Shown: positions 2,573 through 23,228 of the stretch, piece after piece
Numbering within the stretch: position 1 is the stretch's first letter
Layout of the letters: each line of letters begins with the position of its first letter
NCBI GenBank assembly: GCA_044892525.1
Contig: CM097885.1
Location: forward strand, 115,134,001-115,198,000
Source: Schmidtea polychroa
Taxonomy: Eukaryota
Length of the DNA stretch: 64,000 nucleotides
Reading direction: 5' to 3'
Notes under the pieces: generated by a model
The model's input: the letters and a program-made list of their open reading frames with translations, nothing else
Databases searched by the model: none
What the model was told of the DNA's origin: nothing
Program-made: the position numbers and the translations under genes

Positions 2573-3265
2573 TTAATTATGGTCGGGATTTCTTTTTAGT
2601 GCTTTCTCAGATGCTCTCATCACTTCCGTTTCCGCTTTTATTACTCGTTTTCTCAATTCTGGCAGTACTTCTAGTTGCTTATCTCTTTCGTCTACCTGTT
2701 GTTTTAGGATCTTTATTTTTCCTTTTAACACCTTTATTTCCTGGGTTGCTCTTTCCAGGTTGTTATGGTTCAGTATTTGTAAGAAGTCGTTTCCTCTTTC
2801 CTCGTCTTTTTCGTCGTCTATCTCTTGGTATTTGTTGTTCAGTTTCCTCATTATCTCACACTCCTTTTGTTTTTGATGTAATTGGAGTTGTAGCTCTTTC
2901 AGGCTTTCTTGGTGTTTTCGTGCTTCTGTTCTCCAATAATCATTAATGACTTCGTCTGCCTTTCTACTGGCCCTTTCCTGCCATAATTCTTCTGCAATCT
3001 TCTCCCAATTTCTTCCTCGTTTTCTTTGCTCGTGGAGCCATTCGTTCTCCTCTTCTACTTCTTTCTTCACTTCTTCTAGCAAGGTGTATTCTTTTTTCAA
3101 TACTTTAATCATTTTTCGATTGTCTCTCCATCTCTCTGCTAATCTTTCGTTCTCTTGTCTTTCTTCTTGTAATTCTTCCTTGATAGTTCTCTTCCTCTCC
3201 ACTTCTTCGACTTCAATTTCTCCCTCTTCTAGTTCAGTTGTGGCGAGTATTTCCTCTATTTTCAT
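2573..3265 (-). CDS. Accessory coiled-coil protein, 230 aa, unknown function
   Basis: Open ORF, E/K/R-rich heptads, ttgcag acceptor 2 nt before the ATG. Confidence 0.65.
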   Translation of the reverse strand: MKIEEILATTELEEGEIEVEEVERKRTIKEELQEERQENERLAERWRDNRKMIKVLKKEYTLLEEVKKEVEEENEWLHEQRKRGRNWEKIAEELWQERASRKADEVINDYWRTEARKHQESLKELQLQLHQKQKECEIMRKLNNKYQEIDDEKDEERGNDFLQILNHNNLERATQEIKVLKGKIKILKQQVDERDKQLEVLPELRKRVIKAETEVMRASEKALKRNPDHN

Positions 3266-3448
3266 TTCTGCAATATGTACAATTAATATTTGCGCTACAG
3301 TGCGGCTTATACTTATATATTTATAGGTAATTTATATAATTAGGGTTACAGTCCCGTAAATACTTTTATCGTACTATTAAATTTTTTTTTTTTTTTTTTT
3401 GGGATACAGGTTCCGATTTTTTTTAATTTTTATCTTTTCTATATGCCT

Positions 3449-4494
3449 TTACACAAAGGTCTCTTCCTGACCTACATATCCTTCATCGCTTTTCACTGAC
3501 GCTTGTAGATGGAGTGCGATGGGATCGAATGGAATATAGTTTCGAGGAATCTGAGCTCTAAGCTCCTGGACTTCGTCTCTTAATGCTCTTGATACGTTAA
3601 GTTCCTCGTCTAACAGGTATGTCAGATACCTGGTTTCGTCATCCCTTACTTCTATCTGTTTTTCTAACTCTTCCGCCTTTTCGCCGTTTTCCCATTTTTT
3701 GATCTCCTTTTCTAGGTTTTTGATGTTTTCATCATACATCTTCCTTTCATTTTCTAGTTTTTTGTTTTTTCCGGCTAGCACTATGTTCCTTTGTTCTAGT
3801 GCCCCTTTATAGCCGTTATTGTCTCGCTCCAGGTCTGTCACCTTATTCACGAGTTCAACGATTCTCCCTGACTGTTGCAGGATCATCTCTTCCATGGCAG
3901 TATTTTCCTGTTCTTTCATAGATAACTTCATGGCCAGATGCCTTTCAAATTCCATGGCCTTGGTCTGCCAGGTTTGACTTCGGGCGGCGATTTTTCTGAG
4001 CCTCCTTAGCTCCTCTCTTTGGTCAAGGTTTTCTTCCCATTTTCCTTGCTCACTCTCGTATCCTAGTCTCTGAGGCAATTCTTTCATTTCTTTTTTAATT
4101 TCTTGATGTGATCTTTTCCACTTTCTGGCTTCTGTCAATAGTTGACGAGATTTCCTTTCCTCTTTTTTGGGTTTGTAAACTGAGTAAACCGTTTTTTATT
4201 CTCGTTGGTCAGTCTTTTTCTCGACTCCTGTACTAATTGTTTTAGGTAGTGACTGTGAGCTTCCTGTCGAGTACTCTCTAGTGCTGCCCATTTGGCGGCT
4301 CTTTTACATGCCTCTGCCTCTGCTCGTAAATTTTGCACCAACCACTGGAATTGGTGGTTCTCCCATTCTCTTGCTTCTTCGAGATAGTTTCGTGTTTGGT
4401 TTGCTAGTTGCGCCATCACTTTGGCCCATCTTTCTCGGTGCATCTTATTGATTCTTATCTCGTGGTTTTGGGCTTCAGTTTGTTCTGAGGTCAT
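3449..4494 (-). pseudogene. Accessory coiled-coil protein (~350 aa) with one frameshift near 4170
   Basis: The 4135-4512 and 3449-4138 ORFs join across an A-run (EERKSRQLLTEARK). ATG 4494 has a ttcag acceptor 7 nt upstream. Confidence 0.6.
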
Positions 4495-4706
4495 TTTTAA
4501 TCTGAATAACAATGTTATTAACTTGACGTCGCAAATTTGTTTTTATTATTTATTGTTTATAATTCATTATCGGTGGGTTGCTTTAAAATTTTTCCGCTTG
4601 AGTTTACCATTAATATATTTGGGGCTTAGCTACACTACTATATATTATTTTGCTGGATATATACGCCGATATTTACAAATTAGTATATACAAAATTATTC
4701 GTTTCA

Positions 4707-6106
4707 CTACTCTGTCCTACTCTTTCCATCTCGCCTCACTGTTATCTTTTTGTATATGGTATCGTTCCTCGTCATGTCCTCTACTTTTCGCTGTAAGATG
4801 AAATTCGGTGCTCCGGATGCTGGTCCTTCTTCCTCCAATGGCATCTGATAACATACGAGGTTTCCTGCTGTATGAAAACTCTGTTCATGTATACTTTGAT
4901 GATTCATCATTGCGAGGTTTATTTTCGCTTTGAACGTCATTCGATTAGCTCGTCGTATAACCCTTTGCACATAAAAAAGAATACTGAAAAATGTGTTCCG
5001 TATGCGCTTCCGTCCCAGTTGGGATACGCTTTCATTTTCATTTTATACCCGTTTTTCCATGCATAGAATGCTGGACTTAGCAATGTTGTATCCTTTCCGT
5101 TTCTCGCTTTCTGCATTTTTTCTTTTACTCCCGTTATCTTCCATATGTAGGGAGCCGTTGGTATTAATTCGTTGAGGTCCATTTTGCTCACTCTTTGATA
5201 TAGTTCTTTCACCATATTATTGCTAGTTTCTACTAAGTCGGTCTGTATCTTCGTACTTGTTCTCGCTTCTTCAAATGCTTCTTTTTCTTGTAATAACTCC
5301 TTTACCAACGCTTTTAGCGAGATTATTTCTTTTTCTAAGTTTTCGGTTTTCCTTTCGTTTTCTTGTAATACCGTTGACCACATCTCCGCGTGTGTTGATA
5401 CGTTCTCTGCTAGATGTTGGGGTAATTCTCCTCGGTGTAATTGTTTCTGACATCCCCATTTTCCTAACACACACGTTATCTTTTTCCTTTCACATTCTCT
5501 CAGATGTTGGGCGAGTTTTATAACTCCTGATTTATTGCATTTGTTAGGGCATTCTCCTCTGAACTCTGCGCACACTTTTTCCTCTTGTAGGTTGTGATGT
5601 TGATTAGTTAATTTTCTCCAGGTATCAGTTTCTCCGCAATATTCACATTTTTCCAGCCTTTCCTCGCATCGACTTTGATGTTCTTCCTCCTCATTTGCTT
5701 TAATCACTTCCTGGCAGCGTTTACATTGAGTGATCTTATATGCACATCCCTCCATATGCTGCTTGACTTCCCATATCAATCCTCGCCAACTACATGGGGT
5801 GTTTTTACATCCTAAATTTGCATTCAACATATCTTTCACTGCCGCTTTATCCTCGTTTGTCTCTTCCAAACTTGTTATCATGGCTTCTTTACATACTGGG
5901 CACCATTGTGGTCCCTTCTTTATTATCTCTTCTACACATTCTTTGCACATTCTGCATCCACATCTGGTTTGGTGAGGCTCTTTTAATAAACTCTTGCATA
6001 TTCCACACATTACATGGTTGTGTATTTGAATTGTGGTGGATTGTCTGACTAGCTCGACAATCTCTTTGAACTCTTCTCTTTGTCGCTTGTCCATTTCTAC
6101 AATCAT
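4707..6106 (-). pseudogene. Intronless TRAF-family protein (RING, TRAF zinc fingers, coiled coil, MATH) with stop/frameshift at ~4937
   Basis: CGICKSLLKEPHQTRCGCRMCKEC..CPVC RING; repeated C/H fingers; MATH start YIWKI..SPAFY..GYKM..YPN.DG..GTHFSVFF..KG.YD. MATH continues in the 4707-4970 frame (FKAKINL..ASGAPNF..NDTIY). Confidence 0.92.
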
Positions 6107-6185: not shown

Positions 6186-6545
6186 TTATTGGCTAGAAGA
6201 GTCGGCCTCCTGTCCGCCCTCTTCCCTATTGGTTAACCATTCTGACCAGTCTTCCATCTCTACTTGCTCGGCTTCCTCCATCATTCTTTCTAATTCGATT
6301 TCTTGTCTTTGACTATACCGTGTTATTCGTTCTATCTCTCTCTGCATTTGGTTGATTTGTACCCTCTGGTCCTCAATTATTTTTAAATAACTAAATCCTT
6401 TGTTCAGACTATCTACTAAGTTCCTTTGCGCAGTGAGTCCTTGCTCCTGTAGATTTGATACTAATTGTGCTAATACGGTACATTGTTGCTTCCACATGTC
6501 CTCAGTTGTTGTATTGTGGTTTATCTCGTTGTTTGTCTGCTCCAT
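6186..6545 (-). CDS. Small accessory coiled-coil/acidic protein, unknown function
   Basis: Open ORF from ATG 6545 (MEQTNNEIN...) between AT-rich spacers. Confidence 0.5.
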   Translation of the reverse strand: MEQTNNEINHNTTTEDMWKQQCTVLAQLVSNLQEQGLTAQRNLVDSLNKGFSYLKIIEDQRVQINQMQREIERITRYSQRQEIELERMMEEAEQVEMEDWSEWLTNREEGGQEADSSSQ

Positions 6546-6690
6546 TCTTAATTTATATAGACTTTTCAACCCTTATCTAATTTTAACTTCATATTATTAT
6601 CCCCATAATTATATAATATTGATACCGCGCTTGTATAAAAATATAGAATACTGTTATATAAATAGACATAATGTACTTACTTTTTACAAT

Positions 6691-8085
6691 CTATATACAG
6701 TCATAATCCTTTCTATATTTGTGAGTTTGGAGGGGCTGAGCATTCCAGGCCTCCACCCACTGTTCTTGCTTGATTTTACTTGGTCGTTTGACTCGATGCT
6801 GAAAATTTCTGATTCTGGCCATCTCCAGTTCTCCGCGATGTCGTCTGTCTTTGATTATTTTTATCGTTCCCCCCGTTATGATTAAAAAGGCCCCAGCTAT
6901 TATTATTCCGCTGATCCACATCATCTGTTTTACGCTGATAATTTCCGATTTTTCCTTGTTTGTTGATATCGTCTCTGTACTTTTCTGATTACCGCCTTTG
7001 CCATTTCCCTTTATCATTCCTCGTATTCTCGCTATCTCCTCGTTCATACCTTCCTTTGCCATTTTTTGTATTTTTTCCATCTCTTCCTCTGACACATAAT
7101 TATCTTGATATTTCTCACTGGTTTTCTTGCGCTTTTCTTCCTCATCTTTTTCATCATTGCTTTTTCTTTTCTTCCCTCTTTTCCCAGGGTATCGTCGACA
7201 TTCTCTCTCTGTATCGTTTCTCCAGATACATACCGTGTATTCTTTTGGAGGTTGTTGCTGTGTTACATATTGTAAACAGTCTTCACCCGGTCTTAATCTT
7301 GAAATACAGACTTTGTGTTCTTTCCTTGGCTGGAGTTGCGTTATCACTGCCTCACCTCCTTTTTCCAGGTGTACCTCTTTCCCTTTAACTTTCGTTATTC
7401 TCTTCCCGTCTCGATTTCGGTATGCTTCTTGTATTCTTACTTCCGTTATCGGTTCTGTATCTTCATTTATCAACACTAGTCTCTGATATGCTCTAGACAT
7501 ACATCTTCCTAGTATGCACCTTTCTTTTAGATCCCATTCCTCTTTTAGATCCCATTGCTGATCCTGTGACCGTTTTTTCTTCCCCTGGTTTAGTTCTTCC
7601 TCCTTGTTGTCTTTGTTTTCCGTTTCTTTGGCTTCTTTTATTGTTCTCATCCCCCCATGGGCTGTTACTAACTCCATCATTGTTAGCACAATTATCATTA
7701 ATATCATATTCGTCTCTATTTCCTTGTTGGTGAAAAGTAGGCATACCCTCTGTTTTTCATTGTTCGTCTTTTCTTCTTCCTTTGTTCGGTTTCCGTGGGT
7801 GTTCTCCTCCTTTTTTGCACTTGAGTCGTTATTCCTTTGATTATTCTCTTTTGATTTCTTTTTCTCTCTGTCATCGTTTCGCCCTTTTCCATTATTATCG
7901 TCGTTATCGTCGTCTTTATCTCCCCCGCTGTCGTTTAAAATGTCGTCCTCGACATTTATATCGTTCAATAATCTGCGATATGATGTTAACACTCTGTTCC
8001 TTGCTAATTTTGCTTCGAATTCAAACTCTTTCCTCCCCGTTGCCGCATGTCTCTTTCTATTCCATTCCTTGACTAATTCTCTCAA
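6691..8085 (-). CDS. C-terminal pol extension: internal signal sequence, FN3-like ectodomain, TM helix, cytoplasmic tail
   Basis: Separated from the upstream ankyrin ORF by one in-frame TGA (8110-8112). Hydrophobic MILMIIVLTMMELVTA and MMWISGIIIAGAFLIITGG segments; ITQLQPRKEHKVCI resembles the FN3 L.P..Y.VC motif. Confidence 0.6.
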   Translation of the reverse strand: MRELVKEWNRKRHAATGRKEFEFEAKLARNRVLTSYRRLLNDINVEDDILNDSGGDKDDDNDDNNGKGRNDDREKKKSKENNQRNNDSSAKKEENTHGNRTKEEEKTNNEKQRVCLLFTNKEIETNMILMIIVLTMMELVTAHGGMRTIKEAKETENKDNKEEELNQGKKKRSQDQQWDLKEEWDLKERCILGRCMSRAYQRLVLINEDTEPITEVRIQEAYRNRDGKRITKVKGKEVHLEKGGEAVITQLQPRKEHKVCISRLRPGEDCLQYVTQQQPPKEYTVCIWRNDTERECRRYPGKRGKKRKSNDEKDEEEKRKKTSEKYQDNYVSEEEMEKIQKMAKEGMNEEIARIRGMIKGNGKGGNQKSTETISTNKEKSEIISVKQMMWISGIIIAGAFLIITGGTIKIIKDRRHRGELEMARIRNFQHRVKRPSKIKQEQWVEAWNAQPLQTHKYRKDYDCI

Positions 8086-8109
8086 TTGAATACGACGATG
8101 TTTTCCAAT

Positions 8110-8670
8110 TCACTTTTGTTCATTTTGATTTTGCGTGAATTTGAGGTCTTCCCGGTTTAGTACGATCAGTATGATTTTAGGAGTTCCTCCTTTCGTCAGC
8201 GTATTTTTAACCATTGCATTTTCTCCGTTTTCGTAGAACTCATTGATATTAATTGCATATTTATTGCTTTGTGGTATTCTCCATGTTAACAGTAACTTCA
8301 TAGCTTCTAAGTTTTTCCGTATCGTATTCCATTGGAACTGTGACGTATTCTTACAGATATTTTCTACCTCGTATCTTGTCGCATTTTTACAGATGAATCT
8401 AATCATTTCCAAGTTTGGTTGTATTGTTGCCCAATCCATGGTGGAATTTCCCTCGTTTGAGGTTTCGTCAAGTCTTGAACCTGATTGATGTAATATATGT
8501 AATGTTTTCGGGTGTATATTTGTTATTGCCGCATACATCATTGCTGTTTCTCCTTGTTCGTTTTTAGCGTTAGATTCTTCTCCTAAATCTCTAAGAATTC
8601 GCATGATTGTTATTGCTCTATTTTCTTTTGCTGCTAGTATTGCTTGTTGTAATGGTGTTCTTGAGTCTTT
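8110..8670 (-). pseudogene. Second ankyrin-repeat block of the pol extension
   Basis: TPLQQAI; NAKNEQGETAMMYAA; NEGNSTMDWA. Frameshift from the integrase ORF near 8670. Confidence 0.8.
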
Positions 8671-11194
8671 TGTTGGTATGGTGAATGCTTGTCTTTATTT
8701 TTCCTATGTCTAGATTTGTGGTCTGATCCCTTGCGTAGGTGTGTACTGTTTTTATTATTTTCGCTAGTATCGCTTCGTCAGATAAATCTCGCATTTCTTC
8801 GAAGAACACCTCTTTGGCTTTACGTATTACTATCTCGTGATCGGAGTTTATTATCTTTGCTTTACTTGTGGTTGTTATATTGTTTGGTATTTGATCGTCT
8901 TGTTTCTCAGACTCCCTGGTTGTTACTTTCTTCATTTTTATCTTTTTCCTGTTTGAACTGTTAATGCGTTCCTCCGCCGTAAGCACTTGAATAATACTTA
9001 GGTAGTTTTCTCGAATGTTATTCATGGTTTCCATCATATATAAGACACTCACAGTTTCCCAATATTTTACTTGTACTTTTTCGGTGAATTGAGATATGGA
9101 TTTTTCGAAACTGATAATTCGCTTTCTGATCAGTTGTTCGTCTTTGTGGTTTGAGAGCTTTATACCTCGTTGCAATAGTTGATTTGGAATTTCGAATAGA
9201 TGGTGTCCTCTCATAGCTTCTCTCATCAAGGTGTTTTCTCCTTTGGTAAATGTTTCGTTTATATCTACCATATAATCGTTTTTGATCGGGTTTCTCCACG
9301 AAATTAGTATTCCAGTAATGGTTATCAATTTCTCTTTGATTGCGGTTAATAGCCCGTCATACATATTTCCTATCTCTCTATTATCCTCATATGATAATAG
9401 ATCTACTAAGATTATGAAAGCTTCAGTACTTTTTCCTTTGATTGCATGATGTAGTGCATTTTTCTGATCGTGATCTTGTGTGGTTATCTTTGACCCTGTT
9501 TCCAGCAATGCTGTAATGATATCTTTAGTTTTATCCCGATTTGCTGCTATCATTAGTGGAGTGTAACCTTGATTGTTTTCTTGATTTGTCGAAATGTTAC
9601 AGTCATGAAATGCTTCAATCGTTTCCAATATTTGTTCATTATTACCAACCTTTAAAAGTTTGTGTAATGGTGTATCTCCGTAGTGGTCTGTGATCGTGAA
9701 TAATATAGGCCATTGACTTTTAACCACTCTGAGCAATGGGTGCGTTCTTTCCCGATTTGCATAATTTTCTATCATTGTTAGTAGACCTCCTAGTATTTCA
9801 AAATCCAATCTATCTTTTGCCCATCCGGGTATTTTAACTTTTACCTCTTTTATGATTCTTTCTGCTTCTGACGGTTGTAATCCTAGTCGACTGCCTGTTG
9901 GTTCGGTTACCTGTCGTAACATGTTCATTCTGTACGTTTGTGATCTTGTTGTTAATGTACGTCCTTCTGGCTGGCTAGTAGCTGTTTTCGGTATTGGTTT
10001 GCAGCGTGCAACGTTTACATATATTGGCCTTGTGAATGGATTGTTTACTAATCGTACTCTTACGTTAGTTTCTCCGACGAATAAAATCTCATACGGTCCT
10101 TTGCCATTGCGTTGTAATTTCTTGGTGGTTCCGGGAATTAATTCTGGTGTTTCGATCATCACCCAATCGCCTGTTTGAAACGTATGTTGTTTAACGTTTT
10201 TCTTTCTATCATGCAGATCTTTGTAGCTCTCCTGATAAAATTTTATGTTTAATCCTGCAGTTTCCCAGATTTCCTGCATTCTTTCCTTGAACTTCGTTAC
10301 ATAATCGTCTATTTCCATATATTGTGATATTGGTAGCTGATACTCTAAATCCATTGGCATATTACATTCTCTGCCGTACATCAACTTGAACGGACTCATC
10401 TTTGTGGATGCATGGATTGACATCCGGTAAGCCATTAGACATAATTTTATGTATTCATCCCAATCCCGTTGGTGACGGTCAACATAATTTGACAACATTT
10501 GAATGAGCGTTCCATTGAATCTTTCTGTCATACCATTTGTTTGTGGATGATACGGTGATGTTCTTAATTTTGCAATCTTGAAGTAGTTGGTTACTTCGCT
10601 CATTATTTCACTCATGAAATTTGTCCCTTGATCGGTCAGTATTTGTTTTGGCGTTCCATATCGACAACATATCTCTTCTACTAGTATTTTGGCTATTGTT
10701 TTTGCTTTCTGGTCTGCCATAGCGAACGCTTCAGGGAATTTAGTTAGATAATCCGTAATTACCAATATATAAATATTTCCTCTATCTGATTCTGGCAGTG
10801 GACCGACTACGTCCATTGATATCATTATCATTGGTTCAGCTGGTACTGGCATTGGCGTTAATGGTGCTTTCCATTTTGTTCCCGTATTTTTCCTAGTTGC
10901 GCAAGTTATACAATTTTTCACCCATTCCATTACATCCTCAGGTAACGTAGGCCAGAAGTATTTTTGTTTCATTCGTGCTAGCGTCTTTTTTGATGACATA
11001 TGTCCTCCGAGTCTTCCGTCATGATATTGCGTTAGCAAATCCTTGCGTCTATTCTCTGGGATACACATTAGTCTTTTTTCACCATCCATTATCAATAACC
11101 AATCCTTTTCTATTATATATCGGTGTCGATGTTTATCCATATGCTCTTTCAACTTTTGATCTTTCTCATATACCTCTGCTTTCCCGGTTTTCAC
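8618..11194 (-). CDS. Integrase (HHCC, DDE, GPY) fused to ankyrin repeats
   Basis: YHDGRLGGH..CITC; SMDVVGP; TDQGTNF; PYHPQTNGMTERFN; GPYEI; then GDTPLHKL, GYTPLMIAA, KNALHHAI. Confidence 0.95.
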   Translation of the reverse strand: MKTGKAEVYEKDQKLKEHMDKHRHRYIIEKDWLLIMDGEKRLMCIPENRRKDLLTQYHDGRLGGHMSSKKTLARMKQKYFWPTLPEDVMEWVKNCITCATRKNTGTKWKAPLTPMPVPAEPMIMISMDVVGPLPESDRGNIYILVITDYLTKFPEAFAMADQKAKTIAKILVEEICCRYGTPKQILTDQGTNFMSEIMSEVTNYFKIAKLRTSPYHPQTNGMTERFNGTLIQMLSNYVDRHQRDWDEYIKLCLMAYRMSIHASTKMSPFKLMYGRECNMPMDLEYQLPISQYMEIDDYVTKFKERMQEIWETAGLNIKFYQESYKDLHDRKKNVKQHTFQTGDWVMIETPELIPGTTKKLQRNGKGPYEILFVGETNVRVRLVNNPFTRPIYVNVARCKPIPKTATSQPEGRTLTTRSQTYRMNMLRQVTEPTGSRLGLQPSEAERIIKEVKVKIPGWAKDRLDFEILGGLLTMIENYANRERTHPLLRVVKSQWPILFTITDHYGDTPLHKLLKVGNNEQILETIEAFHDCNISTNQENNQGYTPLMIAANRDKTKDIITALLETGSKITTQDHDQKNALHHAIKGKSTEAFIILVDLLSYEDNREIGNMYDGLLTAIKEKLITITGILISWRNPIKNDYMVDINETFTKGENTLMREAMRGHHLFEIPNQLLQRGIKLSNHKDEQLIRKRIISFEKSISQFTEKVQVKYWETVSVLYMMETMNNIRENYLSIIQVLTAEERINSSNRKKIKMKKVTTRESEKQDDQIPNNITTTSKAKIINSDHEIVIRKAKEVFFEEMRDLSDEAILAKIIKTVHTYARDQTTNLDIGKIKTSIHHTNKRLKNTITTSNTSSKRK

Positions 11195-11206
11195 GTATTC
11201 GATAAT

Positions 11207-13601
11207 TTACTTCAACTCTACATCATCTTGTTGGTCTTTCCGTAATTGGCAAAAGTCTAAATCTTCCGCTACCATCAGACATATTCGTTGCATTTCGTGA
11301 TCCACTAAGTCTGGAAAAATAAATCTTGACATACAATCTGCATTTGCGTTTGCTCTTCCTGCTTTGAATTTTATGAATGGTGAATATTCCTGTAATTGCA
11401 TAGCCCATCGCATCAATCTACTGGAGGCTTCTTTGTGTTGTCCGAGCCATACTAATGGTTGATGATCTGTTGTTATACATATTTCATGTCCCCATAATAG
11501 ATATCGAAAATGCTTAATTGCCTGTATTATTGCTAATGCTTCCCTTTCTGTTACCGAGTAGTTTTTCTCATGTTTCTTGAACGTTCTGCTGTAGTAGCCG
11601 ATTACTCTCTCCTTACCTTCATCGTCTAGTTGTCCCAGTATTGCTCCGGCTGCATAACCACTTGCATCTGTCGCTAATAAAAACGGTTTCTTGAAATCTG
11701 GATGTACTAGTATTGGGGCTTCGATTAATTTATCTCGTAATGTTTCGAACGCCTTTTGTTGTTCTGCTCCTCAGATAAAGGAAATATCTTTTTTCACTAA
11801 TTCTTGGATAGGTTTCGCAATGCCTGCATAGTTTTTAATGAATTTACGATAATATCCGCCTAGTCCAAGAAATTCTTGAACTTGAGTGACGGTTTTCGGT
11901 GCTGGACAGGTTTTTATTTTTTTCTATATTTCTGGGATCTGGTTCTTTGCCTTTTGCTGACACTATGTGTCCTAGGAACGTAACCTTCTCTTTTGCCCAA
12001 TCACACTTTGATGGTTTGAGTTTCAATTTCCATTGCCTTAATCGGATGAACACATTTCTAATATCCTCCAAATGTTGTTCAAATGTTGCTGAATATATTA
12101 ATAGATCATCAATATATACCATACACTGCTTGATCCCGTGCGTGACAAAGTTCATGCATCTTTGAAATGATGCTGGGGCATTAGTTAATCCAAATGGCAT
12201 TTTCCTGAATTTGTATAGATCTCGTCCCAATGTGAATGCTGTTTTCTCCTTGTCCTCCTCTTTGACTTTGATCTGCCAATATCCGCTTTTCAGATCTAAA
12301 GATGTAAAATATGCGGCTCCCTGTAACATAAGCAACATCTCATTGATGTCTGGTAGCGGGTATGTGTCTCTTTTCGTTACCGCGTTGAGTTTTCGATAAT
12401 CGATACAGAATCTCTGCGTACCGTCTTTTTTCTTCACCATGACTACTGGAAATTTCCATGGTGAACAACTCGGTTCAATTACTTTTGCGTCTAACATCTT
12501 TTGCACTTCTGCTTCAGCTATTTCTTTTTGTTTTTCTGCTAGTTTGTATAAACGTAATGCGATTGGAGTTTCGTCTATCAACGGTATTGCGTGTAATGTA
12601 ACATCGCATGCTCCCAAATCCAAATCCGAAATGGCGAATATATCTTTATATTCTATCAATAATTGTTGAAGTTTTCCTTTTTCATTCTCTGTTAGCAAGG
12701 TACTATCGATTATCCATAATTCGTCAGTCTTCATGGTGTCGTTGATGATCTTTGGTAATTCAATGTCCATCATCGGTGTTAATCTACCCAATCTTTCATT
12801 CTCATATATGATCTTATCTTCTTCCTCGAAATTCGTGATGTTAATTGGTATTTCTCCTTCTTCATTTATTGTTATTATTTCTCTTGCCAATGGTAATTCT
12901 CGTCTTTTTTCGAATGATTTGCTTGGTTCGAATATGGCTTCTCCTTCCATTCCGGTATCTACTTTTATTTGACATATCATTTGTGATTTTGTTGGTACAA
13001 TTATTTTTTCCGGACATCTAATTATGGCTTTCATCTTGCATATTCTACCCAATTTGTCTTTTAGGCACATTGTTGTTAGATCGATTACCACTTCTTTGAA
13101 TAATTCCGGCATTAAGTCTGTTCCGATTATACAGGGTTCACTCAGTTTTGGTATTACCGCCAGATAGGTTTCGATTTCATTATCTTGATATCGCAACTTG
13201 GTCCGCCATCTTCCCACTACGTCTACTGTCTCTTTGCTGCATGCAATAATATGGATGGTTGTCTGTTCGATGTCTTTCCAATATTTACTGGGTATTTGAT
13301 TTATTGCTATTGCCGATACATTTGCTCCGGTATCTATCATTGCGCTCGTCTCTTTTCCATTAATTCGGATCATGACTGTTACGGCTGAGCCTCCTAGCGA
13401 ACTCATTACTGCTATCGTTCTTACGTCATCAGCTTGGTCTACGCTTTTGGTTCTTCGGGTTGGCATATAATTCATTCCTGGTTGACTTGGTAACTGTGGA
13501 TACATATTTGTGTCATGGTTAAAGCTGCTTGTGGTCCCACGATATCCGGTGGTATATAACTTCCATTGGCTATCCAAGTATTCGTCTTTTCTTTCTCCCA
13601 A
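11207..13601 (-). pseudogene. Protease - reverse transcriptase - RNase H
   Basis: IDTGANVS protease; RFCIDYRKLN, PFGLTNAP, VYIDD; TDASG, EREALAI, TDHQPL, NADCMSR. Frameshift ~11920, TGA 11771-11773, TAA 11207-11209. Confidence 0.96.
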
Positions 13602-15853
13602 TATGGTGCTGTTTCTATTTGCTTTTCGTGCGGGTTTCTACTTGGATATGGGTATTTATCATTTCCGTTATCATCGTCATCGCTATCGCTGCTGTTTGAG
13701 CGATTTCTAAATCTTTCCAGGAATTTTGGTTTGTTCTTCTTTAGTTGTGCTCTCGTGGCTTCGTCATACATTGTTTTCCGGAATCGTCTGCCAACTTCCT
13801 CGTCCGTTCCTTTTATTTTGGTTAATATTTTAATCAATCGTTTTATCCGATGAATGTCTTTTGAGTGGCCGTGTAACAGCATTGTTTTGGCTAAGAATGG
13901 TAGAAATCCCACTATCAATTTCCAATTCACTTTCTTCTCCCTCTTGTATATATCAAAACAAGCTAACATTTGAGTTAGGATTACTCTGACTATTTGAATT
14001 ATGAGTATGATTCCTAATATTCCGGCCATCATTTGTCCAAATACTAAAAATCTTCCCCACATTGCTTTCATCATTTTTGACGTGGCTTGTTGGAAATGAT
14101 CGGGTGACAATAATAGCTCATAATTTGGACCCGTTTGATAATTCGTTCCCCCGGTTATAGTTACCATATTTGACAATATTGACTCTCGTCTGACTGGAAA
14201 AAGTATGTTTAGCCGTGCTGTTTCTAGATCTTCTGGGGAATACATACCTCCGTTTGATACGTCAATGGGTTTGAAGACTTGTTCCGTGGCGAGTTCTATT
14301 AATCCAAACTTCTTGGGCTCCTCTGTTATGGATTTTACCGGTAACATTATCCATTTCCCATCGGGTCTTTCATACAATGGTCCGTACGCATTAGAACAGT
14401 TAAAGAGATTCGGGTAGAAACCCACTGGGTTCATAATTCTGGTGACTGGTTGGACGAATCGGTTTTGTCCTTTATAACGAATTTCTAATTCATTTGCACA
14501 TTTCCCTGATGGTATTGTGGGTTTTTCTGGCATTCGTGCATACGTCTTGGTACACTGATAGGTGTACATTACTTCTCCTACCATTCTTCCAAAATGTCCA
14601 TCTGGTAATGGAAGTGATGGCATCGTATTATCTGGATGCGTTATCGCGATAGCTAGTTTTGTTTTCAGTATCTCTTTATTCAATGAACAATCGTTTTGTA
14701 TCAGATCGTAATATACTTTTTGTAGTGTCGTTTGTCCACGATGAAATAAAAAATCCATTTTGTTGTTGGCGTATAGGTACAGTTTGACGTCTTCTGTGGC
14801 TATCTTTCCCACTGCTCTATCTATTATCTGCCTTGACATGTAGATGCCTGCGTAGTTAGTCTTGGATACTATACTATCGCATTTGGTGGTTTCCTTCTCC
14901 TTGATAAATCTCATGCCCAGGTCTGGATCGTCTGTGATTAGTGCCGTTGGTGTTTTCTGTGTTGAGAGTCTTTTTTCTCTGGGCGATGGTGGCACTGGTT
15001 TTCCGTTTCGCATGTGTACTTTCCCATTTCCATCTTCGTCGTCTTCGTTCTCATAAAATTCTCCCTTTACTTCATTGAACAAGGCACTTTTTAACAGTTG
15101 GAGTCGGCATTTTTGAGTGTTAGCTTCATATATTATGGTCGATACCCCCGTCTTGCATACGTTTTCCGTGGCTTTACATGTTGGGTTGGTTTTCATTTGA
15201 TAATTATTGGCGTCGAATTGTGCCTCGTATTCTTTTAATTCAACGGTGTAAGACTCGATCACTACTACCCCTGATATCACCTCTCCTCTGATCGTATATG
15301 CACCTCCGTTACATGATCCATCGCCTGCGTTTACACGTCCGGCTACATAAATACTTTCTGTTTTAATCATTCCGCTTTGTCCATGTTTTGTTACTCCGTT
15401 ATGCATTTTCATTGCTCCGGTTCTGAAGAGCTCCTTGCAGTCCTCTCTTTGTATGGATACTATTTCTTTATCTAATCCGGGTAGTATGAGATTTGAATAG
15501 GAATATTGTCCACAGTAATATGCGAGTACCCTTTTTGATACCACGCATTCCCTTGCTTGGGTCCTGATAAAATCCGATTCTTGATATACGTGGTATGTGA
15601 CCTTTCTATTTACTATGTCTAACTTGTTCGGCGATGCTTGTCTACATTCTTCTATATCTCTCAGTGAGTATTTGTCTCTCATTATCGAATTATCACAATC
15701 GTAAATTGTAAATCCACCTGCTCCGCTTGTACATAGCATCCATATCATCATGGTCATCATTAGTGAGTTAATTGACGCTTTTCTGCTGGCTGGGTCTTTT
15801 AATGGCAATTCCCATTCTAGTTCGTTTAGTAATTTCTTCAACCTGATTTGCAT
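13472..15853 (-). CDS. Envelope glycoprotein resembling chuvirus/Monjiviricetes class III fusion proteins
   Basis: Signal-like LMMTMMIWMLCTSGAGG, then TIYDC..YSLRDIEEC, ECVVSKRVLAYYCG, REDCKELFRTG, many conserved Cys, and TM anchor WGRFLVFGQMMAGILGIILII. Confidence 0.8.
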   Translation of the reverse strand: MQIRLKKLLNELEWELPLKDPASRKASINSLMMTMMIWMLCTSGAGGFTIYDCDNSIMRDKYSLRDIEECRQASPNKLDIVNRKVTYHVYQESDFIRTQARECVVSKRVLAYYCGQYSYSNLILPGLDKEIVSIQREDCKELFRTGAMKMHNGVTKHGQSGMIKTESIYVAGRVNAGDGSCNGGAYTIRGEVISGVVVIESYTVELKEYEAQFDANNYQMKTNPTCKATENVCKTGVSTIIYEANTQKCRLQLLKSALFNEVKGEFYENEDDEDGNGKVHMRNGKPVPPSPREKRLSTQKTPTALITDDPDLGMRFIKEKETTKCDSIVSKTNYAGIYMSRQIIDRAVGKIATEDVKLYLYANNKMDFLFHRGQTTLQKVYYDLIQNDCSLNKEILKTKLAIAITHPDNTMPSLPLPDGHFGRMVGEVMYTYQCTKTYARMPEKPTIPSGKCANELEIRYKGQNRFVQPVTRIMNPVGFYPNLFNCSNAYGPLYERPDGKWIMLPVKSITEEPKKFGLIELATEQVFKPIDVSNGGMYSPEDLETARLNILFPVRRESILSNMVTITGGTNYQTGPNYELLLSPDHFQQATSKMMKAMWGRFLVFGQMMAGILGIILIIQIVRVILTQMLACFDIYKREKKVNWKLIVGFLPFLAKTMLLHGHSKDIHRIKRLIKILTKIKGTDEEVGRRFRKTMYDEATRAQLKKNKPKFLERFRNRSNSSDSDDDDNGNDKYPYPSRNPHEKQIETAPYWEKEKTNTWIANGSYIPPDIVGPQAALTMTQICIHSYQVNQE

Positions 15854-15918
15854 TGATCTTTCTTGTTCGTTCTTTCGTGGGGCTTGTATCAGCCTTTTCC
15901 ATCCACCGGCGTGGATAA

Positions 15919-18900
15919 TAGGGTGGGTCGAATGTTAATAAATTTTGAGTTCAAGAAAGGAAACATGGTTAAAAAGTTGTATTTTGGTATAGAAAAATCG
16001 AATCAAACCATTTTACTTAGATTTATGAACATTTACTGCTCCCAACTTTTCTCCGAAAATGCAGTTCAACATAAGTGTGAAAACAATGTAATTTGGCTAG
16101 TGTCGGAATGTGTTTTGCGCCTTTGTCCATATTTAGATGTAGCTTTCTTAAGAGCTTATAAGTATATTATTTACTCTCTTGGGCTGAGATAGTATATTCT
16201 GTGTCCTCATCCCGCATTGAAATATATCCTGACAACGTCAGTGATTAGGAAGGGCCAAATTTGAATTATCCTTTTCAAAGACAAAAATCAACTTTCGAAA
16301 TTATTTTTTATTAAAAACATCCAGCCAAAAGTTTAGAAATGTATTAGCGAGGGCATAAAAAGAAGTCACATGAAATCAGCTTTGCTTTGCACCTTGGGCA
16401 ATTCCTTCCTTGATTTTTTACACAGTAGTACCATACCATGTCTGGACTTGTGACCAAACACTTTGCAACTGGCAGAAGAAACATCTTTGATGGCTCTTTC
16501 AACGGCTTGAGAATGACAGGGAAATTGTTCTAATGTAATTTTCTTATTCATCTTCAATTCATGATCCAATATATGAGATAAAAGAGGGGGAGGCGTCAAA
16601 TTACATTTTGTCCAGTCAATCATGTCAACATATGATGTAGCAGACGACTGAAGAAAGACAGTATTCTTGTCCATAGTGCGAATCACTTCGGAAGGGAGAA
16701 AATTTTTTCTTGCAGTTATGATTTTTTCTGTTGCAAACTTTCTGATTTCTTCATCATCATCACCAACAGCAGCTAGGAGTATATTTTCTGGATGTGAGAA
16801 GTAATTGTTGTTCTGAATGACAGGAAAGATGATTTCTTGGTCTGATGGATCCAAATCCTGCAGAAGTTGGAGCATATAAAAAATATTTCTTGCACCATCT
16901 TGGCATGACGAGTGAGTCTTTATATAAAACCATGACGGTCCATAGAAATTGACAATAAATTTCACTATTCGCATGAGAGGTTCAGATGGAGCAGTTTCGG
17001 ACATATATAGTCGCAGAATTATATTAGCTTTCGTTAGCCAGCGACTGTGATTCAAATTTCCTGGTTGTGCCATTTGTAGAAAAGGGACATCCTTGTTGTT
17101 GTGGTACCCTTTCTGGACTGCCAAGCATACTCTGAGGAAATACAATTGATCAGTGTTCAATTCTTTCTTGACATTTTCACTAATATCTACGACCTTTCCA
17201 GGAAGGGACATAAAGGCTACTACGGGCTTGTCTTTTGGATCAAAATCAAGAACGCTTCCTATTTCACCACATGACGTTTTTGGACCTTTTGTTTCTCCAC
17301 CATCGACGACTGAAAAATACTTCCTGAATGGCAATTCATTTGCATGCAACAAGCATATCAGCCATTGTAGAGGTCGCCCTAGGCTTTTTTCGAGTCTTCT
17401 GATTATTCCATTATTTTTTCCGGTGTTTGTATTGGTTGCATCGCACACAATTGCTTGAAGGGTCAGTGAGGACTGCGTGCTAACGATGATTGACATGATT
17501 TCTTTGCCAATATCCACAGCTTTACTACTTTGAGGTACAACATGATCGATATATGTATCCCCTGGAAAGGCGACAATCACATAATGCTCCTCTTTTAGGA
17601 TCCTTCTATGAAGTAAGGTGGAATCTTGTTTCCCGTCGAAACCGAGGTAAATCAAGTTTTTCGCTTCTGCTGAATGCTGTTCAATTTCTCTCTCCCTCCA
17701 GTACTTTCTCTGACGCCGTAATTTTGCGGGATCGATGATTGTTTGAGAGGATAACAGTTCCATATCTTTCAGAAAAGCGTTTACTAGCAAACACGTGTCT
17801 CTGTTGCTCACACTACATCTGTCAACAGCTTTACTTAATTCAGGATAATGTCTTCTATTTTGAAATTCATCACATTCTTCTACGCTTGACTCTGAGCTTT
17901 CTGTTGAATTGTCTAACTTATCTTTACTTTCATCACTAGCGGCTTTACTCTCCGTGTCACTTCTTGAGGTCGGATGTAGATCGTTAACTTCAGTGTCCAT
18001 TATTTCATTTTTCATTTGTTTTCCTTTTCCTGTAGGGCTGCTTTTCGTTTGTTTTCTCTTCAATTTTGAGGTTTCCTGTCTGTCCGTATTTCCGATTTTC
18101 ATGTTTCTGGTAGTTTGTTGGTCAATCCAGAACTCCCACTCTAAGGTAGGAATTTTCAAGGCCAACCGGCATGTACACTGACTTCTTCCACGAGCACCAT
18201 CATTAAAACATTTGCAGCAACATATGTCAAACAATTTGGAAAACGAGCTTAACTTATCTTGAAATTTGGCAGATGACCTCTTGCATTCTGGATACTTCTC
18301 TAATTCACGCACTTTTGATATTAGTCGCTTGACACGAACCACAATACTACTGAACTCAACAGTTGGGATACTTGCCTTCATATAAATTTCCTTCACCTTA
18401 TTTGCGAGAAGAGTTGCTTGTTCGTTAAAGCCAGTATGAAATTGCGTACATTTCTCATTGTAACAGTAATCACGAAACACATCTTCACAAGTAGGTAATT
18501 GGTTTCTGGGTAGTTCACAAGTTTGACCAAACAGACAATGACGTGATTTATTTCTTGTTTTGCGAAATTGCTTATTTCTCTGTCCCTTCATAACTGCTCT
18601 TCTGTACTCAGCTCTGGCAAAATAAAAGTGAATCATCAAGTTAACTTTTTTAATTAGGTCCAGCAAACACTTGACATCCAATCGAAACAAATTAAATTAT
18701 CTGAGTTTAGACTGACTAGTAGTATCCATGTGGATTATATGTTGACTGTAGTATGTGTGTTAGTATTGTTCAGAAGAAATTGTCTTTGTGAGTGCTTGTG
18801 TGAAGGTGCTTCCGTGAATTAACCTCTCTATACATGCACGCGTTAGCTTGGACTTGTGAATAGAGCATATCAAAAATGGTCTTTCTGCAAGCGTGTGACT

Positions 18901-19089
18901 GCTTGCAGGATGAGTTTACAATGGCACGTGTGCGAGCATTTTTACTGGGATAGTACTAATACATACAAACAAAAGTTGGGACCTGTAAACCCTTTTAAAC
19001 AGCAGTCTTTTGCAGGGATATTTCATTTTCTAGCATAAGCACAACTTTTTAGGCATGTTTGGAGAAAAAAAAAATTTCGACCCACCCTA
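15919..19089 (-). mobile_element. hAT-superfamily DNA transposon (probably hATm-like) nested in the LTR element
   Basis: 14-bp TIR TAGGGTGGGTCGAA; 8-bp TSD GTGGATAA at 15911-15918 and 19090-19097. Confidence 0.88.
16366..18690 (-). CDS. DDE transposase, apparently intact
   Basis: FDGKQD, VCDATNTNTG, WLICLLHANELP (CxxH), HSRWLT, YFSHPEN, PCHSQAVER. Confidence 0.9.
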   Translation of the reverse strand: MFRLDVKCLLDLIKKVNLMIHFYFARAEYRRAVMKGQRNKQFRKTRNKSRHCLFGQTCELPRNQLPTCEDVFRDYCYNEKCTQFHTGFNEQATLLANKVKEIYMKASIPTVEFSSIVVRVKRLISKVRELEKYPECKRSSAKFQDKLSSFSKLFDICCCKCFNDGARGRSQCTCRLALKIPTLEWEFWIDQQTTRNMKIGNTDRQETSKLKRKQTKSSPTGKGKQMKNEIMDTEVNDLHPTSRSDTESKAASDESKDKLDNSTESSESSVEECDEFQNRRHYPELSKAVDRCSVSNRDTCLLVNAFLKDMELLSSQTIIDPAKLRRQRKYWREREIEQHSAEAKNLIYLGFDGKQDSTLLHRRILKEEHYVIVAFPGDTYIDHVVPQSSKAVDIGKEIMSIIVSTQSSLTLQAIVCDATNTNTGKNNGIIRRLEKSLGRPLQWLICLLHANELPFRKYFSVVDGGETKGPKTSCGEIGSVLDFDPKDKPVVAFMSLPGKVVDISENVKKELNTDQLYFLRVCLAVQKGYHNNKDVPFLQMAQPGNLNHSRWLTKANIILRLYMSETAPSEPLMRIVKFIVNFYGPSWFYIKTHSSCQDGARNIFYMLQLLQDLDPSDQEIIFPVIQNNNYFSHPENILLAAVGDDDEEIRKFATEKIITARKNFLPSEVIRTMDKNTVFLQSSATSYVDMIDWTKCNLTPPPLLSHILDHELKMNKKITLEQFPCHSQAVERAIKDVSSASCKVFGHKSRHGMVLLCKKSRKELPKVQSKADFM

Positions 19090-21216
19090 GTGGATAATGT
19101 GTGGTTCAATTGTATTTTCGATGATTGTAACTGTCATTTCTACATGATTTGCGAATTGTTTGTTTGGTATCTTCCTTGCAGCTAATCCCATCAAATTGTA
19201 CATTAAATACGTTAGCACTACTAGATGATGTTCATCGTTGTTTGCGTTTAAAGTCAATTGCTCGATCATTCTACTTGTCTCTTCCCAATCTGTTTTAGCG
19301 GTCTTTGTTTTCTCTTTGATTAATTTCGGAATTATTCCGGATATTGCATTCCACAGTTGTCTGGCTTCTACACTCGCTACTTTCCGTTGCCATAGTCGTC
19401 TCAACTGTGGATTGGTTATTATTAGCATATCCTTTACTAACTCCCGTATCCATTTTTCACCTCTTTCGATTGTTGGCTGGGTTTCTTTTAGATCCCACAC
19501 TATTTTGTCCAGTTTTTCTAATCTGGCTTGCCCTTGTTCTTGTTTTAATTGTTCTCTGGTTTTGAATTCGGGGTTTTCGCCTTGCTTCTTGGGTCTTCCT
19601 TTTACCCGTTTCTCCATCATTGTTCCGGCTTCTCTCGTCATTTCGTAACTCGGGTTTCTCTCATTATCCGTTCTCGGCAATGAGCTATCATTGTTTCTCA
19701 GCCATTCATTCCATTCATCTATAATTTTGTCATTTTTCCCCTCCGTTGGCAGCTTGGTTGGTTCTTGTAATCTCTTTATTTGTTCATCCGTTTCAGTTTC
19801 TGTTGTATTATCCATAATTTCCTCAATACTCAGTTTATTTGGTAGTTGATAACTAGTGGATGGTTGGTTTGTTGTCCATGTTTCTGCTCCTGTCGGCCAT
19901 CTCACTAGAATTGGCGATCTTTCTCCAGCTTCTTCGTCACTATCTTCCAATATGATCTCCTCGATCTCTTCAGTTTCATTTGATTTGCTTGGCACGTTGT
20001 CAGGGCTTGGTGTACTCAAGCTACCTTTCGTGGGTTTGCTGGATTTGGTTTTCCTTTTGATTGGTTTTCCCAATGTTTCTGCCATTGTCAATACATTGAT
20101 TTCCCCCAGTCTCATGGGTGTTATTCCGACGTCTGCATTATCATCTAATGATTTTCCTTGCAGTTGTAGATGGAAAGGAGTTTCATATGCTAATTTCTTT
20201 TTTAATTCTCGGATTTTTGTGGTTGGATGCACCTCTACTTCCTCGACATTTTTATCTGGGTATTTAATTCGAATTCGATATCTTTCTTGGGTGTCTTATG
20301 ACCATTCATGGGTTCGCCATTTCCCGATGATTTGCTCCAATTGTTCCGGGTACCATTCGTTGTACTGTCGGTATTCTTCTATAGTCTTTACTATTTCTCT
20401 CAGATAGTGGATGTTGTCTGATACTTTTAGAATGAAGTTAGCCAATGCTATTACTTGTCGTTTTTGATTTTTCACTCCCATTATTAAGATATCACCTAAT
20501 TGTTTATATCTTTCTCTCTCTTCTCGATCTCTTGCTTCTATCGCTTCTTCACTGTCCATATCGGCATATTCACGTTCCTTCTTTCTCATTGCATGAATGT
20601 GTCTGGTTTCCGTTTCGCTTTCGGACGTGACATCTGTTTCACTTTCGTCATCTGATTCCGGTTCTATTTTGTCTTCTTCGTATTTCGGAGGTTCATCTTC
20701 CTCTTCTTCTGACTCACTTTCTATCTCACCGATGTCGGTTTCTACGAAAATTCCTTTCCTAATTTCCCATTCTTTATTTTCTGCATTCCACATCCAAGGG
20801 GTTCGTCTGCAAGATCTAGTACTCAGTTTCTTTATTTTCCCTTGTAGTTCTTTTTCGTTTAGCCACTGTTGATGCATTTCAATTATCTCTACTGATTTTT
20901 GGTATAGCGTTTTCATCCTATCTCGTATCTCTTTCTGGTAGGTCACATCTCTTGTGCGAAATTCATCCATGGGTAATATCCTGATTATTTGATGATTATC
21001 CCACATGCCCATTTCGCTTAACGAGGTGTCGTCCTCAGCTCGTAATATTATTTTGTCGTACATCATGACTACATCATCTATCATACCGTCGCTACTTTCA
21101 CTTCGTACCTTTTCCGTTATCTCTTGGTTTATCTTTGCTACCAAGTCATCCACCGTACTCTGGTTGCTCATTTTTATTCGTCGCTTCTCCTCGTTCGGCA
21201 ACCATATGGTTATTTC
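19090..21216 (-). pseudogene. Gag extension, part 2: ubiquitin-like domains 2 and 3, acidic repeat, Bcl-2-like region
   Basis: The 20296-21201 and 19087-20232 ORFs share a frame across one TAA and rejoin the flanking ORFs when the insertions are removed. Confidence 0.7.
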
Positions 21217-21624
21217 TAAAAAAAAAAAAAAAAAATCAAATTTTATTTTAATAAACCATCAGGCCCATCGGGCATAAGGGGAGATATTCTCGACCCTTTG
21301 AAATCTAAAGCTTTTTTTTCTGTTAACTGGCGAACGCTGAGCAGGTGCTCAAGCGTTAAACGAGAGGTCTGATTGGTTGATGTTGAAGCTTCTTGAGACA
21401 AGCTCCACTTTCATATAATAAAGATATTTTGGGTATAAATAAGGTTATGCATGGATATACAGTATTATATATAGGATATAGTTGGTGAGTTTTTGGTAGT
21501 TCAGAAGAATAGTGGGTAGACGAGGTGGGAGGTACAGGTACTACAGTGTGAGGTAAAGGGTTAGAGGTTGGAAGACATATGGTAGGGGTTTAATAGTATG
21601 TTAGGTGTGAAGGTTTTGGGTGAA

Positions 21625-21830
21625 GAGGTTGATGGAAGTTAGAGGTTGGAATGTAGAGGTTGGAATGTAGAGGTTGGAATGTAGAGGTTGGAAGGTAGAG
21701 GTTGGAAGGTAGAGGTTGGAAGGTAGAGGTTGGAAGGTAGAGGTTTGAAGGTAGAGGTTGGACGGTAGAGTTTGGACGGTAGAGGTTGGAGGGCATAGTA
21801 TTGAAAGGTAGAGGTTTGAGAGTAGGTTGT
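21625..21830. repeat. 14-bp minisatellite (tagaggttggaagg)n in the LINE 3' UTR
   Basis: About 12 tandem copies visible. Confidence 0.9.
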
Positions 21831-21999
21831 AGGGTGAAGGTTTCTTAAGGCTATTTAAAGATACGGTATAGGCGGGTAGAAGTGGGAGAGTAGAGGTTGA
21901 AGGATAGGTGAAAGGTTGTTTTAATTATTGTTTTTTTTTTAAATATTAAATATAAATAAGCAAATATAGGAATGAGGCAACACAAGAAAAGAGACGCTT

Positions 22000-22660
22000 G
22001 ACTGTTCAGGGTTGGTTGGGTTGACGCTTGACTGGTCAGAATTGCCGGATTGGTCATTCACAGTTAAAAACACATATAACAAAAGAGACTGGCTGGGTTG
22101 AATGGGTTGACGCTTGTCTGGTCGGGATTGCCGGATTGCTCATTCACAGTTAAAAAACATATATAACAAAAGAGACTGGCTGGGTGTAATGTGTTGACGC
22201 TTGACTGGCCAGGATTGCCGGGTTGATCATTCACAGTTAAAAAACATATATAACAGAAGAGACTGGTTGGGTTGGTTGGGTTGACGCTTGACTGGTCAGA
22301 ATTGCCGGATTGGTCATTCACAGTTAAAAACACATATAACAAAAGAGACTGGCTGGGTTGAATGGGTTGACGCTTGTCTGGTCGGGATTGCCGGATTGCT
22401 CATTCACAGTTAAAAAACATATATAACAAAAGAGACTGGCTGGGTTGAATGTGTTGACGCTTGTCTGGTCGGGATTGCCGGATTGCTCATTCACAGTTAA
22501 AAAACATATATAACAAAAGAGACTGGCTGGGTTGAATGTGTTGACGCTTGATGGCTGGGTTGGTTGGGTTGGCGCTTGACTGGCCAGGATTGCTGACTGT
22601 GTTGGTTGGGTTGAGGCTTGACTGGTCAGGATTGCCGGATTGATCAGTCACAGTTAAAAG
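22000..22660. repeat. 86-87-bp tandem repeat in the LINE 3' UTR
   Basis: ttgacgcttg recurs at about 22021, 22107, 22194, 22281, 22367, 22454, 22541. Confidence 0.9.
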
Positions 22661-22808
22661 CACATTGATGGGCAGGTGTCCAGTATGTCCTTGTATCATT
22701 GGGTATTCAACACGGTGGGTCCTTTCTATTAAATAAGTCGGTTGCCCGAGGAGGTGCATGGTATAGAATAATGGATATATTGTTTTTATTATTGTAATCG
22801 TTATTATT

Positions 22809-23025
22809 NNNNNNNNNNNNNNNNNNNNNNNNNNNNNNNNNNNNNNNNNNNNNNNNNNNNNNNNNNNNNNNNNNNNNNNNNNNNNNNNNNNNNNNNNNNN
22901 NNNNNNNNNNNNNNNNNNNNNNNNNNNNNNNNNNNNNNNNNNNNNNNNNNNNNNNNNNNNNNNNNNNNNNNNNNNNNNNNNNNNNNNNNNNNNNNNNNNN
23001 NNNNNNNNNNNNNNNNNNNNNNNNN
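22809..23025. other. Assembly gap (217 N)
   Basis: Run of N. Confidence 1.
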
Positions 23026-23228
23026 TTGATACTATGAATACCAATATCAAAAATCTTGTTGCTAATATTAAGAGCTTTGCATTCATACGCAACACTCAGT
23101 ATAGAAAATTTTTAAATCTCATCATTGCATAGGGATAATTAAAATTTTGTATAATAGGAATAGTTTTGATATAAATATGGTAATGCTTTGACAGTTAGAT
23201 AATATATAGAGAAATATGGGGGTGTGTG

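Follow-up and report, generated by a model that had tools for sequence, protein, structure and literature searches.

The planarian Schmidtea mediterranea harbors giant Gypsy-like elements named Burro1 (GYPSM1), Burro-2, Burro-3 and Burro-4 (PMC6431247, citing Jurka 2007 and Grohme 2018), and MATH_TRAF_C, BIR, Bcl-2-like and ankyrin motifs have already been published as part of their coding content (PMC6431247). The accessible text of that paper names only the MATH_TRAF_C motif, which it places in ORF1 or, in D. tigrina, in an accessory ORF upstream of ORF1. As reported by Lee et al. 2026 (Dev Cell, as given in PMC13465017), the B-IAP gene of Burro1 protects planarian stem cells against caspase death. 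An expansion of TRAF genes in planarians has been reported, in the passages available, without reference to such elements (PMC6109357; PMC7586133; bioRxiv 2021.10.12.463740), and its reason is described as unresolved (bioRxiv 2021.10.12.463740). In addition, traf and ankyrin RNAs are listed as piRNA targets in a text whose accessible part does not contain the word Burro (PMC6824462), and the accessible parts of PMC8532177 and PMC11410931 mention Burro and do not mention TRAF. The literature text that was searched holds no account of a full-length stand-alone TRAF ORF in Burro elements; Grohme 2018, Lee 2026, and figures and supplements lay outside this search and may annotate the ORF. What is added here to the known Burro cargo is a stand-alone, full-length TRAF under selection, the MATH, BIR and Bcl-2 motifs and the B-IAP function being prior knowledge.

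The window, i.e., the whole analyzed stretch of 64,000 nucleotides of the Schmidtea polychroa genome, contains most of an element of 37.9 kb (~30 kb without two nested transposons), all features of which lie on the minus strand. Its 5′ LTR (31355-35452) carries a 256-aa ORF at 31903-32670 and is followed by a 4-bp target duplication; its 3′ LTR begins 2,490 bases before the window and ends inside it (1-1646). Both LTRs are ~4.1 kb long, have TGTTG..CAACA ends and differ by 7 mismatches in 4,098 aligned bases and by two indels. This LTR pair with its target duplication flanks the TRAF gene, so the preliminary description was right to place TRAF inside an LTR element. The primer-binding site (31330-31347), which is identical in all three element families of this genome that are discussed below, is complementary at 18 of 18 positions to the host tRNA-Pro(TGG) with its CCA. 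The size of ~30 kb, the long LTRs, the Gypsy order of protease, reverse transcriptase, RNase H and integrase, the CCHC gag, the tRNA primer site and the target duplication are all Burro traits, and we classify the element as Burro-type by its layout as described in PMC6431247.

Reading in the direction of the element, a 5′ accessory ORF of 165 aa (30454-30948; 160-170 aa across families) with an IAP-type RING at its end precedes gag and is kept in all three families. The polyprotein follows in pieces: gag with three CCHC knuckles and the region after it (25960-29024); a part with a ubiquitin-like domain and a faint Bcl-2-like stretch (19090-21258), which, unlike that of the Burro1-like family, has no MATH domain; an env-like fusion glycoprotein (13475-15934; PF24664, E 8.6e-73); protease, reverse transcriptase and RNase H (11210-13637); and integrase, ankyrin repeats and a tail (6694-11206). 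The env domain lies in frame between gag and pol, as PF24664 precedes the protease and other copies have long open frames across this region. The ankyrin repeats match at E 1e-8, and the ubiquitin (E 0.003) and Bcl-2 (E 0.048) matches fall short of the Pfam cut-offs. Two nested insertions, both missing from the other copies examined, interrupt the element, namely, a non-LTR retrotransposon with RT, zf-RVT and poly-A (21219-25959) and a DNA transposon bounded by terminal inverted repeats, with an ORF of 776 aa (15920-19089). Downstream of the polyprotein, five separate ORFs are found, of which TRAF is the second: a 128-aa ORF directly upstream of TRAF (6189-6572), common to all three families and showing 26% identity in the Burro1-like one; TRAF itself (4707-6106); a coiled-coil-like ORF, split here and ~350 aa long in other copies (3452-4542); a charged, coiled-coil-like ORF without a Pfam family (2576-3331); and a last ORF, split by a frameshift here, ~224 aa long in other copies and likewise without a Pfam family (1881-2523). 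A BIR gene and a polyprotein MATH are both absent from the window's family and both present in a family of the same genome with a 4,791-aa polyprotein.

The signs of age in this element disagree. The near-identical LTRs (7/4,098) enclose, within positions 1-35452, an interior in which the polyprotein has about five stops and five frameshifts, three accessory ORFs are broken and the two transposons are nested. This mismatch suggests that the LTRs were homogenized or that a dead genome was copied again late, and LTR dating would mislead for the window element. Near relatives of its LTR were recorded elsewhere at 12 unpaired places (91-98%). Several further features were observed in passing. A coiled-coil-like ORF of ~250 aa without a Pfam family lies inside LTRs (31903-32670, 36298-36976 and 45210-45857) and has an open frame in every family examined as well as in unrelated LTRs of the vicinity; 14- and 87-base tandem repeats occupy 21560-22700, in the 3′-terminal part of the nested non-LTR retrotransposon; and nested long inverted repeats at 50100-61100, with arms at 54464-55097 and 59455-60092 (98%), surround a transposase-like ORF (57765-58304) and represent foldback-type DNA transposons. 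The tRNA-Pro(TGG), the primer tRNA of all three families, forms a 475-bp tandem array at G000:C1:130.9 Mb (L185-L187), with 2,164 matches genome-wide.

The TRAF frame (4707-6106) comprises a RING (5891-6007), a zinc-finger region (~5450-5809), a coiled coil (~5159-5392) and a MATH domain (~4710-5155), with a single frame break. The first 389 codons are open from position 6106 downward and include the RING, the zinc fingers, the coiled coil and half of MATH; a stop codon together with a one-base frameshift at 4937-4939, particular to the window copy, then shifts the remainder of MATH into another frame, which continues down to 4707. The window copy also has an altered form of a MATH motif that is nearly invariant, being present in 19/20 type-A (the window's type) and 16/16 type-B unbroken copies. 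Sequencing contigs spoke neither for nor against the break, and hypermutation of the window copy was considered and rejected, as its substitution spectrum resembles that of the other copies. The window copy is broken and cannot make a whole MATH domain. Its RING scores above the cut-off (Pfam zf-C3HC4, E 6.5e-5), and the first half of MATH matches MATH_2 at E 2e-11. Pfam zf-TRAF at E 0.01 gave no score for the window's TRAF type and scored in the third, Burro1-like type only; the zinc-finger call is based on matches to TRAF6/TRAF5 RING-zinc-finger structures (best E 3.7e-13) and on conserved Cys/His columns. In a natural unbroken copy, both Pfam MATH families are matched at E ~1e-25, the N-terminal start matches the RING-zinc-finger structures of TRAF6 and TRAF5, and the C-terminal end matches TRAF3 and TRAF2. 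The predicted fold of this copy (mean pLDDT 86) includes a helix of 76 residues and a MATH sandwich similar to that of TRAF1/2/3 at E ~1e-17. Every unbroken copy of type A (20 of 20) and of type B (16 of 16) retains all eight RING cysteines. Pfam, structure matches and the Cys/His columns therefore bear out the initial claim of a full RING, zinc-finger, coiled-coil and MATH TRAF with one break.

How widespread is this gene? Exact 18-mers placed type A at 133 and type B at 158 sites, while reversed controls gave 0. A DNA search with the TRAF sequence returned 397 candidates, and the 40 that were scored were 89-92% identical, apart from the window itself. Type B shares 68-69% protein identity with type A and has the same neighboring ORFs. 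In a wider context, 24 of 25 copies were colinear with the element ORFs, and LTR pairs were found around 3/5 type-A, 2/2 type-B and 1/1 Burro1-like copies read across. These data show that TRAF is a fixed gene of the element family, with hundreds of copies and a constant position after the polyprotein. Twenty further stretches picked among the 133 type-A places comprised eight full-length copies in element context, nine representatives of one locally duplicated fragment and three other fragments. The movement of intact element-type TRAFs outside elements was considered and rejected: the 10-match cluster on C1 (152.9-153.5 Mb) represents one truncated, locally duplicated fragment without MATH. 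This cluster (G000:C1:152.86-153.50 Mb; L165-L173, also L182) consists of ten copies, 98-99.8% alike, of an element fragment 3.4 kb long that contains the truncated TRAF; they lie in both orientations within local duplications. Another type-A TRAF, with an open RING-to-MATH frame (G000:C1:98.06 Mb; L006/L055), has another long-ORF element as its 5′ neighbor, and its 3′ side departs from the family within ~0.7 kb; it may be an interrupted copy or a moved fragment.

Among the 29 nearest copies, 20 are unbroken, and the breaks in the other nine are at differing places, which indicates decay after insertion. The dN/dS ratio (Nei-Gojobori) was 0.09 over 97 pairs with dS of at least 0.2 and 0.12 over 52 deep pairs of type B; by domain (136 pairs), it was 0.12 for the RING, 0.10 for the zinc fingers, 0.13 for the coiled coil and 0.04 for MATH, all values referring to unbroken frames only and to pairs that share history and are not independent. 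Between types A and B, silent sites are saturated, and the proteins are still 69% identical. Purifying selection on every TRAF domain is thus shown. In 28 matched pairs, TRAF (0.14) was compared with the ankyrin region (0.16), the tail (0.12) and integrase (0.02) of the same elements, so that the dN/dS comparison suggested in the preliminary description yields ~0.1 for TRAF, close to the ankyrin region. The idea that TRAF is a neutral passenger, captured once and decaying, could draw on the broken window copy and the nine broken near copies, but the scattered breaks, the dN/dS of ~0.1 and the presence of the gene in the same slot in three lineages refute it, and we regard its probability as negligible. 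With 133 and 158 places and such a dN/dS ratio, TRAF is neither confined to this copy nor subject to neutral decay. Selection means that TRAF is of use to the element; it does not specify which use.

The third family provides a view of the gene in a different company. A MATH search of the genome gave 1,484 candidates, and 123 of the 150 that were scored lay in open frames of more than 600 aa, mostly in the 4,791-aa Burro1-like polyprotein. One Burro1-like element was read across; its RT and RNase H are 70% and 81% identical to those of the window element, and in the same 3′ slot, it carries a stand-alone TRAF of 487 aa (32% identical), with a BIR-RING IAP ORF as the next gene. The polyprotein of this family additionally holds a MATH-only copy. 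Of 338 candidates for the Burro1-like TRAF, 40 were scored and were all ~100% alike, 35 of them located 10-13 kb from a listed polyprotein MATH. In 20 TRAF/IAP neighborhoods, TRAF was unbroken in all 20 and IAP in 18. The TRAF-IAP pairing holds only for the Burro1-like family, as the window's family is without a BIR gene.

Another important question concerns the source of the element TRAF. The preliminary description took the intronless gene for a captured host cDNA. However, six host TRAF2-like genes, which lie outside Burro layouts and have the C-G-C RING variant in common with the element TRAF, equally possess uninterrupted coding frames. As the nearest host genes are themselves without coding introns, the lack of introns does not demonstrate cDNA capture, and capture at the DNA level is indistinguishable from capture at the RNA level; the argument for a cDNA is therefore not supported as made. 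The element TRAF is 25-31% identical to host TRAF2-like proteins, and one host TRAF of this genome shares 71% identity with Dugesia japonica TRAF2-like A, which marks the host as a triclad flatworm. In word-based protein searches, type A yielded two distant matches and the third type none at 1e-10; a HMMER search added four MetaClust proteins, which group with the element TRAFs. A full-length tree of 31 rows unites the element TRAFs (98/94), places them on the flatworm side with respect to other animals (98/95) and makes them sister to one host gene (88/79). In a 25-row tree including the four MetaClust relatives, the element group (100/100) lies outside all sampled host TRAFs (88/88). In a MATH tree, the polyprotein MATH joins the element TRAFs (87/90, unstarred). 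When the element clade was constrained with one host lineage, the topology was not rejected (AU p 0.30), and the place of the element clade differs between the two trees. The phylogeny with host TRAFs that had been proposed as a check thus identifies the element genes as TRAF-derived and as one clade with no sampled host gene inside. A single ancient capture is the likely origin suggested by these comparisons, with the planarian TRAF2-like radiation as its presumed source.

The same trees bear on the opposite direction of transfer, in which the intron-free host TRAF2-like genes and the planarian TRAF expansion would descend from element TRAFs. The six host genes with uninterrupted frames and the shared C-G-C RING variant would fit this scenario, as would the 25-row tree, where the element clade branches outside every sampled host TRAF. 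Nevertheless, no host gene was nested within the element clade among the ~15 sampled in three trees, and the element-type copies found outside elements are fragments (9/9 stretches in one local duplication and 3/11 others). Moreover, the host TRAF clade has members in Dendrocoelum, which lies outside the families with a reported Burro1 expansion (PMC13465017). We consider such a reverse flow very improbable. The earlier suggestion that these elements contribute to the expansion of host TRAFs accordingly stands as a matter of counting only, given the 123 of 150 MATH matches in long polyprotein-type frames and the hundreds of full TRAFs that are element-borne; as a statement on the descent of host genes, it finds no counterpart in the trees, where the element clade is free of sampled host genes. 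A large host TRAF cluster at G000:C2:114.7-121.5 Mb (L072-L098), whose genes have an intron before the MATH exon and form a clade separate from the element TRAFs, is likely the true host expansion.

With regard to expression, a pyrimidine-AG occurs 0-7 bases before the first ATG in 12 of 19 accessory ORFs of the three families, against 3.6 expected from shuffles (p 2.5e-5), a count in which the ORFs are homologous and not independent and in which an in-frame stop can mimic the motif (7 of the 12 are out of frame); before internal ATGs, it occurs in about one case in five. This signal suggests spliced subgenomic or leader trans-spliced RNAs. Contigs from one run, presumably of RNA, span the 3′ ORFs in a type-A copy, contain no GT-AG joint and do not allow the depth to be ranked.

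Taken as a whole, the gene at 4707-6106 is a conserved Burro accessory gene, broken here. Its complete product, a TRAF2/3-like protein, likely promotes survival of the host cell as an adaptor and ubiquitin ligase, a reading that we favor with some reserve. The Burro lineage would have acquired the gene once, long ago, from the planarian TRAF2-like radiation, and the gene would have come to be expressed from a spliced RNA, either in cis or by leader trans-splicing. The protein would form a trimer through its coiled coil, its MATH domain would bind receptor tails or adaptors, and together with a viral or host IAP, it would carry out ubiquitination, damping TAK1/p38/JNK and caspase death signaling, with survival of the cells transcribing the element as the outcome. 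In mammals, TRAF2 and cIAP act together. In S. mediterranea, loss of TRAF raises cell death (PMC7586133), and traf2-1 restrains tissue degeneration, the infection screen in that study being centered on TAK1/MKK/p38 (PMC4993586). A search for the NF-kB Rel domain in the genome gave no match, and the control likewise matched nowhere. At ~31% identity and with a sequence that differs in the stretch lining the peptide groove in TRAF3, the element TRAF may have targets different from those of the host proteins.

The protein could instead act as a decoy, as envisaged in the preliminary description, occupying receptor tails or joining host TRAF trimers and so blocking immune signaling without productive ligase output. 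Its far divergence from host TRAFs (~31%), the position of MATH as the most constrained domain (dN/dS 0.04) and the MATH-only copy in the Burro1-like polyprotein are compatible with this role. On the other hand, the RING ligands and zinc fingers are kept at dN/dS 0.10-0.12 and across lineages that are 32% identical, and the usual dominant negatives among TRAFs are RING-less forms. Furthermore, a block of host TRAFs would be expected to kill cells, judging from the RNAi result in PMC7586133. As all eight RING ligands and all domains are retained, an active pro-survival mimic fits better, and the decoy becomes the less likely reading, to which we attach a rather low probability. Still less probable, in our estimation, is a role in the element's own cycle, in which TRAF would ubiquitinate the polyprotein or a restriction factor, in assembly, budding or the removal of silencing proteins, and leave receptor signaling untouched. 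The other ubiquitin-related parts of the element (the ubiquitin-like domain, the 5′ RING ORF and the ankyrins), the env gene and the drifted peptide-groove region are in line with such a role, but the whole adaptor architecture is retained, and the company of IAP and Bcl-2-like sequences, noted also in PMC6431247, points to death signaling.

The complete, selected TRAF beside B-IAP, which is reported to protect stem cells, is an obvious candidate partner for it and a directly testable second gene, and sister families without IAP still keep TRAF. A broader and much more tentative extension would be that the complete TRAF, the IAP ligase and the Bcl-2-like domain form a portable survival kit of the TNF-receptor type in which each accessory gene has its own splice acceptor, in the manner of a complex retrovirus or a trans-spliced operon, and in which TRAF with B-IAP protects stem cells. 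Under this extension, much of the planarian "TRAF expansion" and of the piRNA-targeted traf and ankyrin RNAs might be element-encoded or a result of cross-fire from the silencing of these elements. Host genes and hundreds of retroelement copies may be confounded in planarian TRAF/MATH counts, in RNAi reagents and in lists of piRNA targets.

In comparison with known systems, the window element shares with Burro1, -2, -3 and -4 the length of ~30 kb, the long LTRs and the polyprotein order of gag (three CCHC), env, protease, RT, RNase H, integrase and ankyrin domains, with candidate ubiquitin-like and Bcl-2-like stretches between gag and env, as well as a cargo of MATH_TRAF, RING and coiled-coil sequences. 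Unlike Burro1, the window's family lacks the polyprotein MATH and the BIR gene and has the complete RING-to-MATH TRAF in a separate ORF 3′ of pol. Burro1 B-IAP is, like TRAF, a host death-regulator gene used as an accessory ORF of an element; B-IAP has a tested function, whereas the literature text searched gives none for TRAF, and the window's family has TRAF without IAP. The host TRAF2-like genes (Smed-TRAF-2A/B, D. japonica TRAF2-like A and Dendrocoelum TRAF-2/4/5) resemble the element TRAF in domain order, C-G-C RING variant, short coiled coil and uninterrupted frame, but at 25-31% identity, and they are few in copy number, lie outside Burro elements and are conserved across triclads. Finally, mammalian TRAF2 and TRAF3, with cIAP1/2 (1ca4, 8zuk), share the MATH fold and the architecture with the element TRAF; they are cellular genes, and their RING has His where the element RING has Cys.
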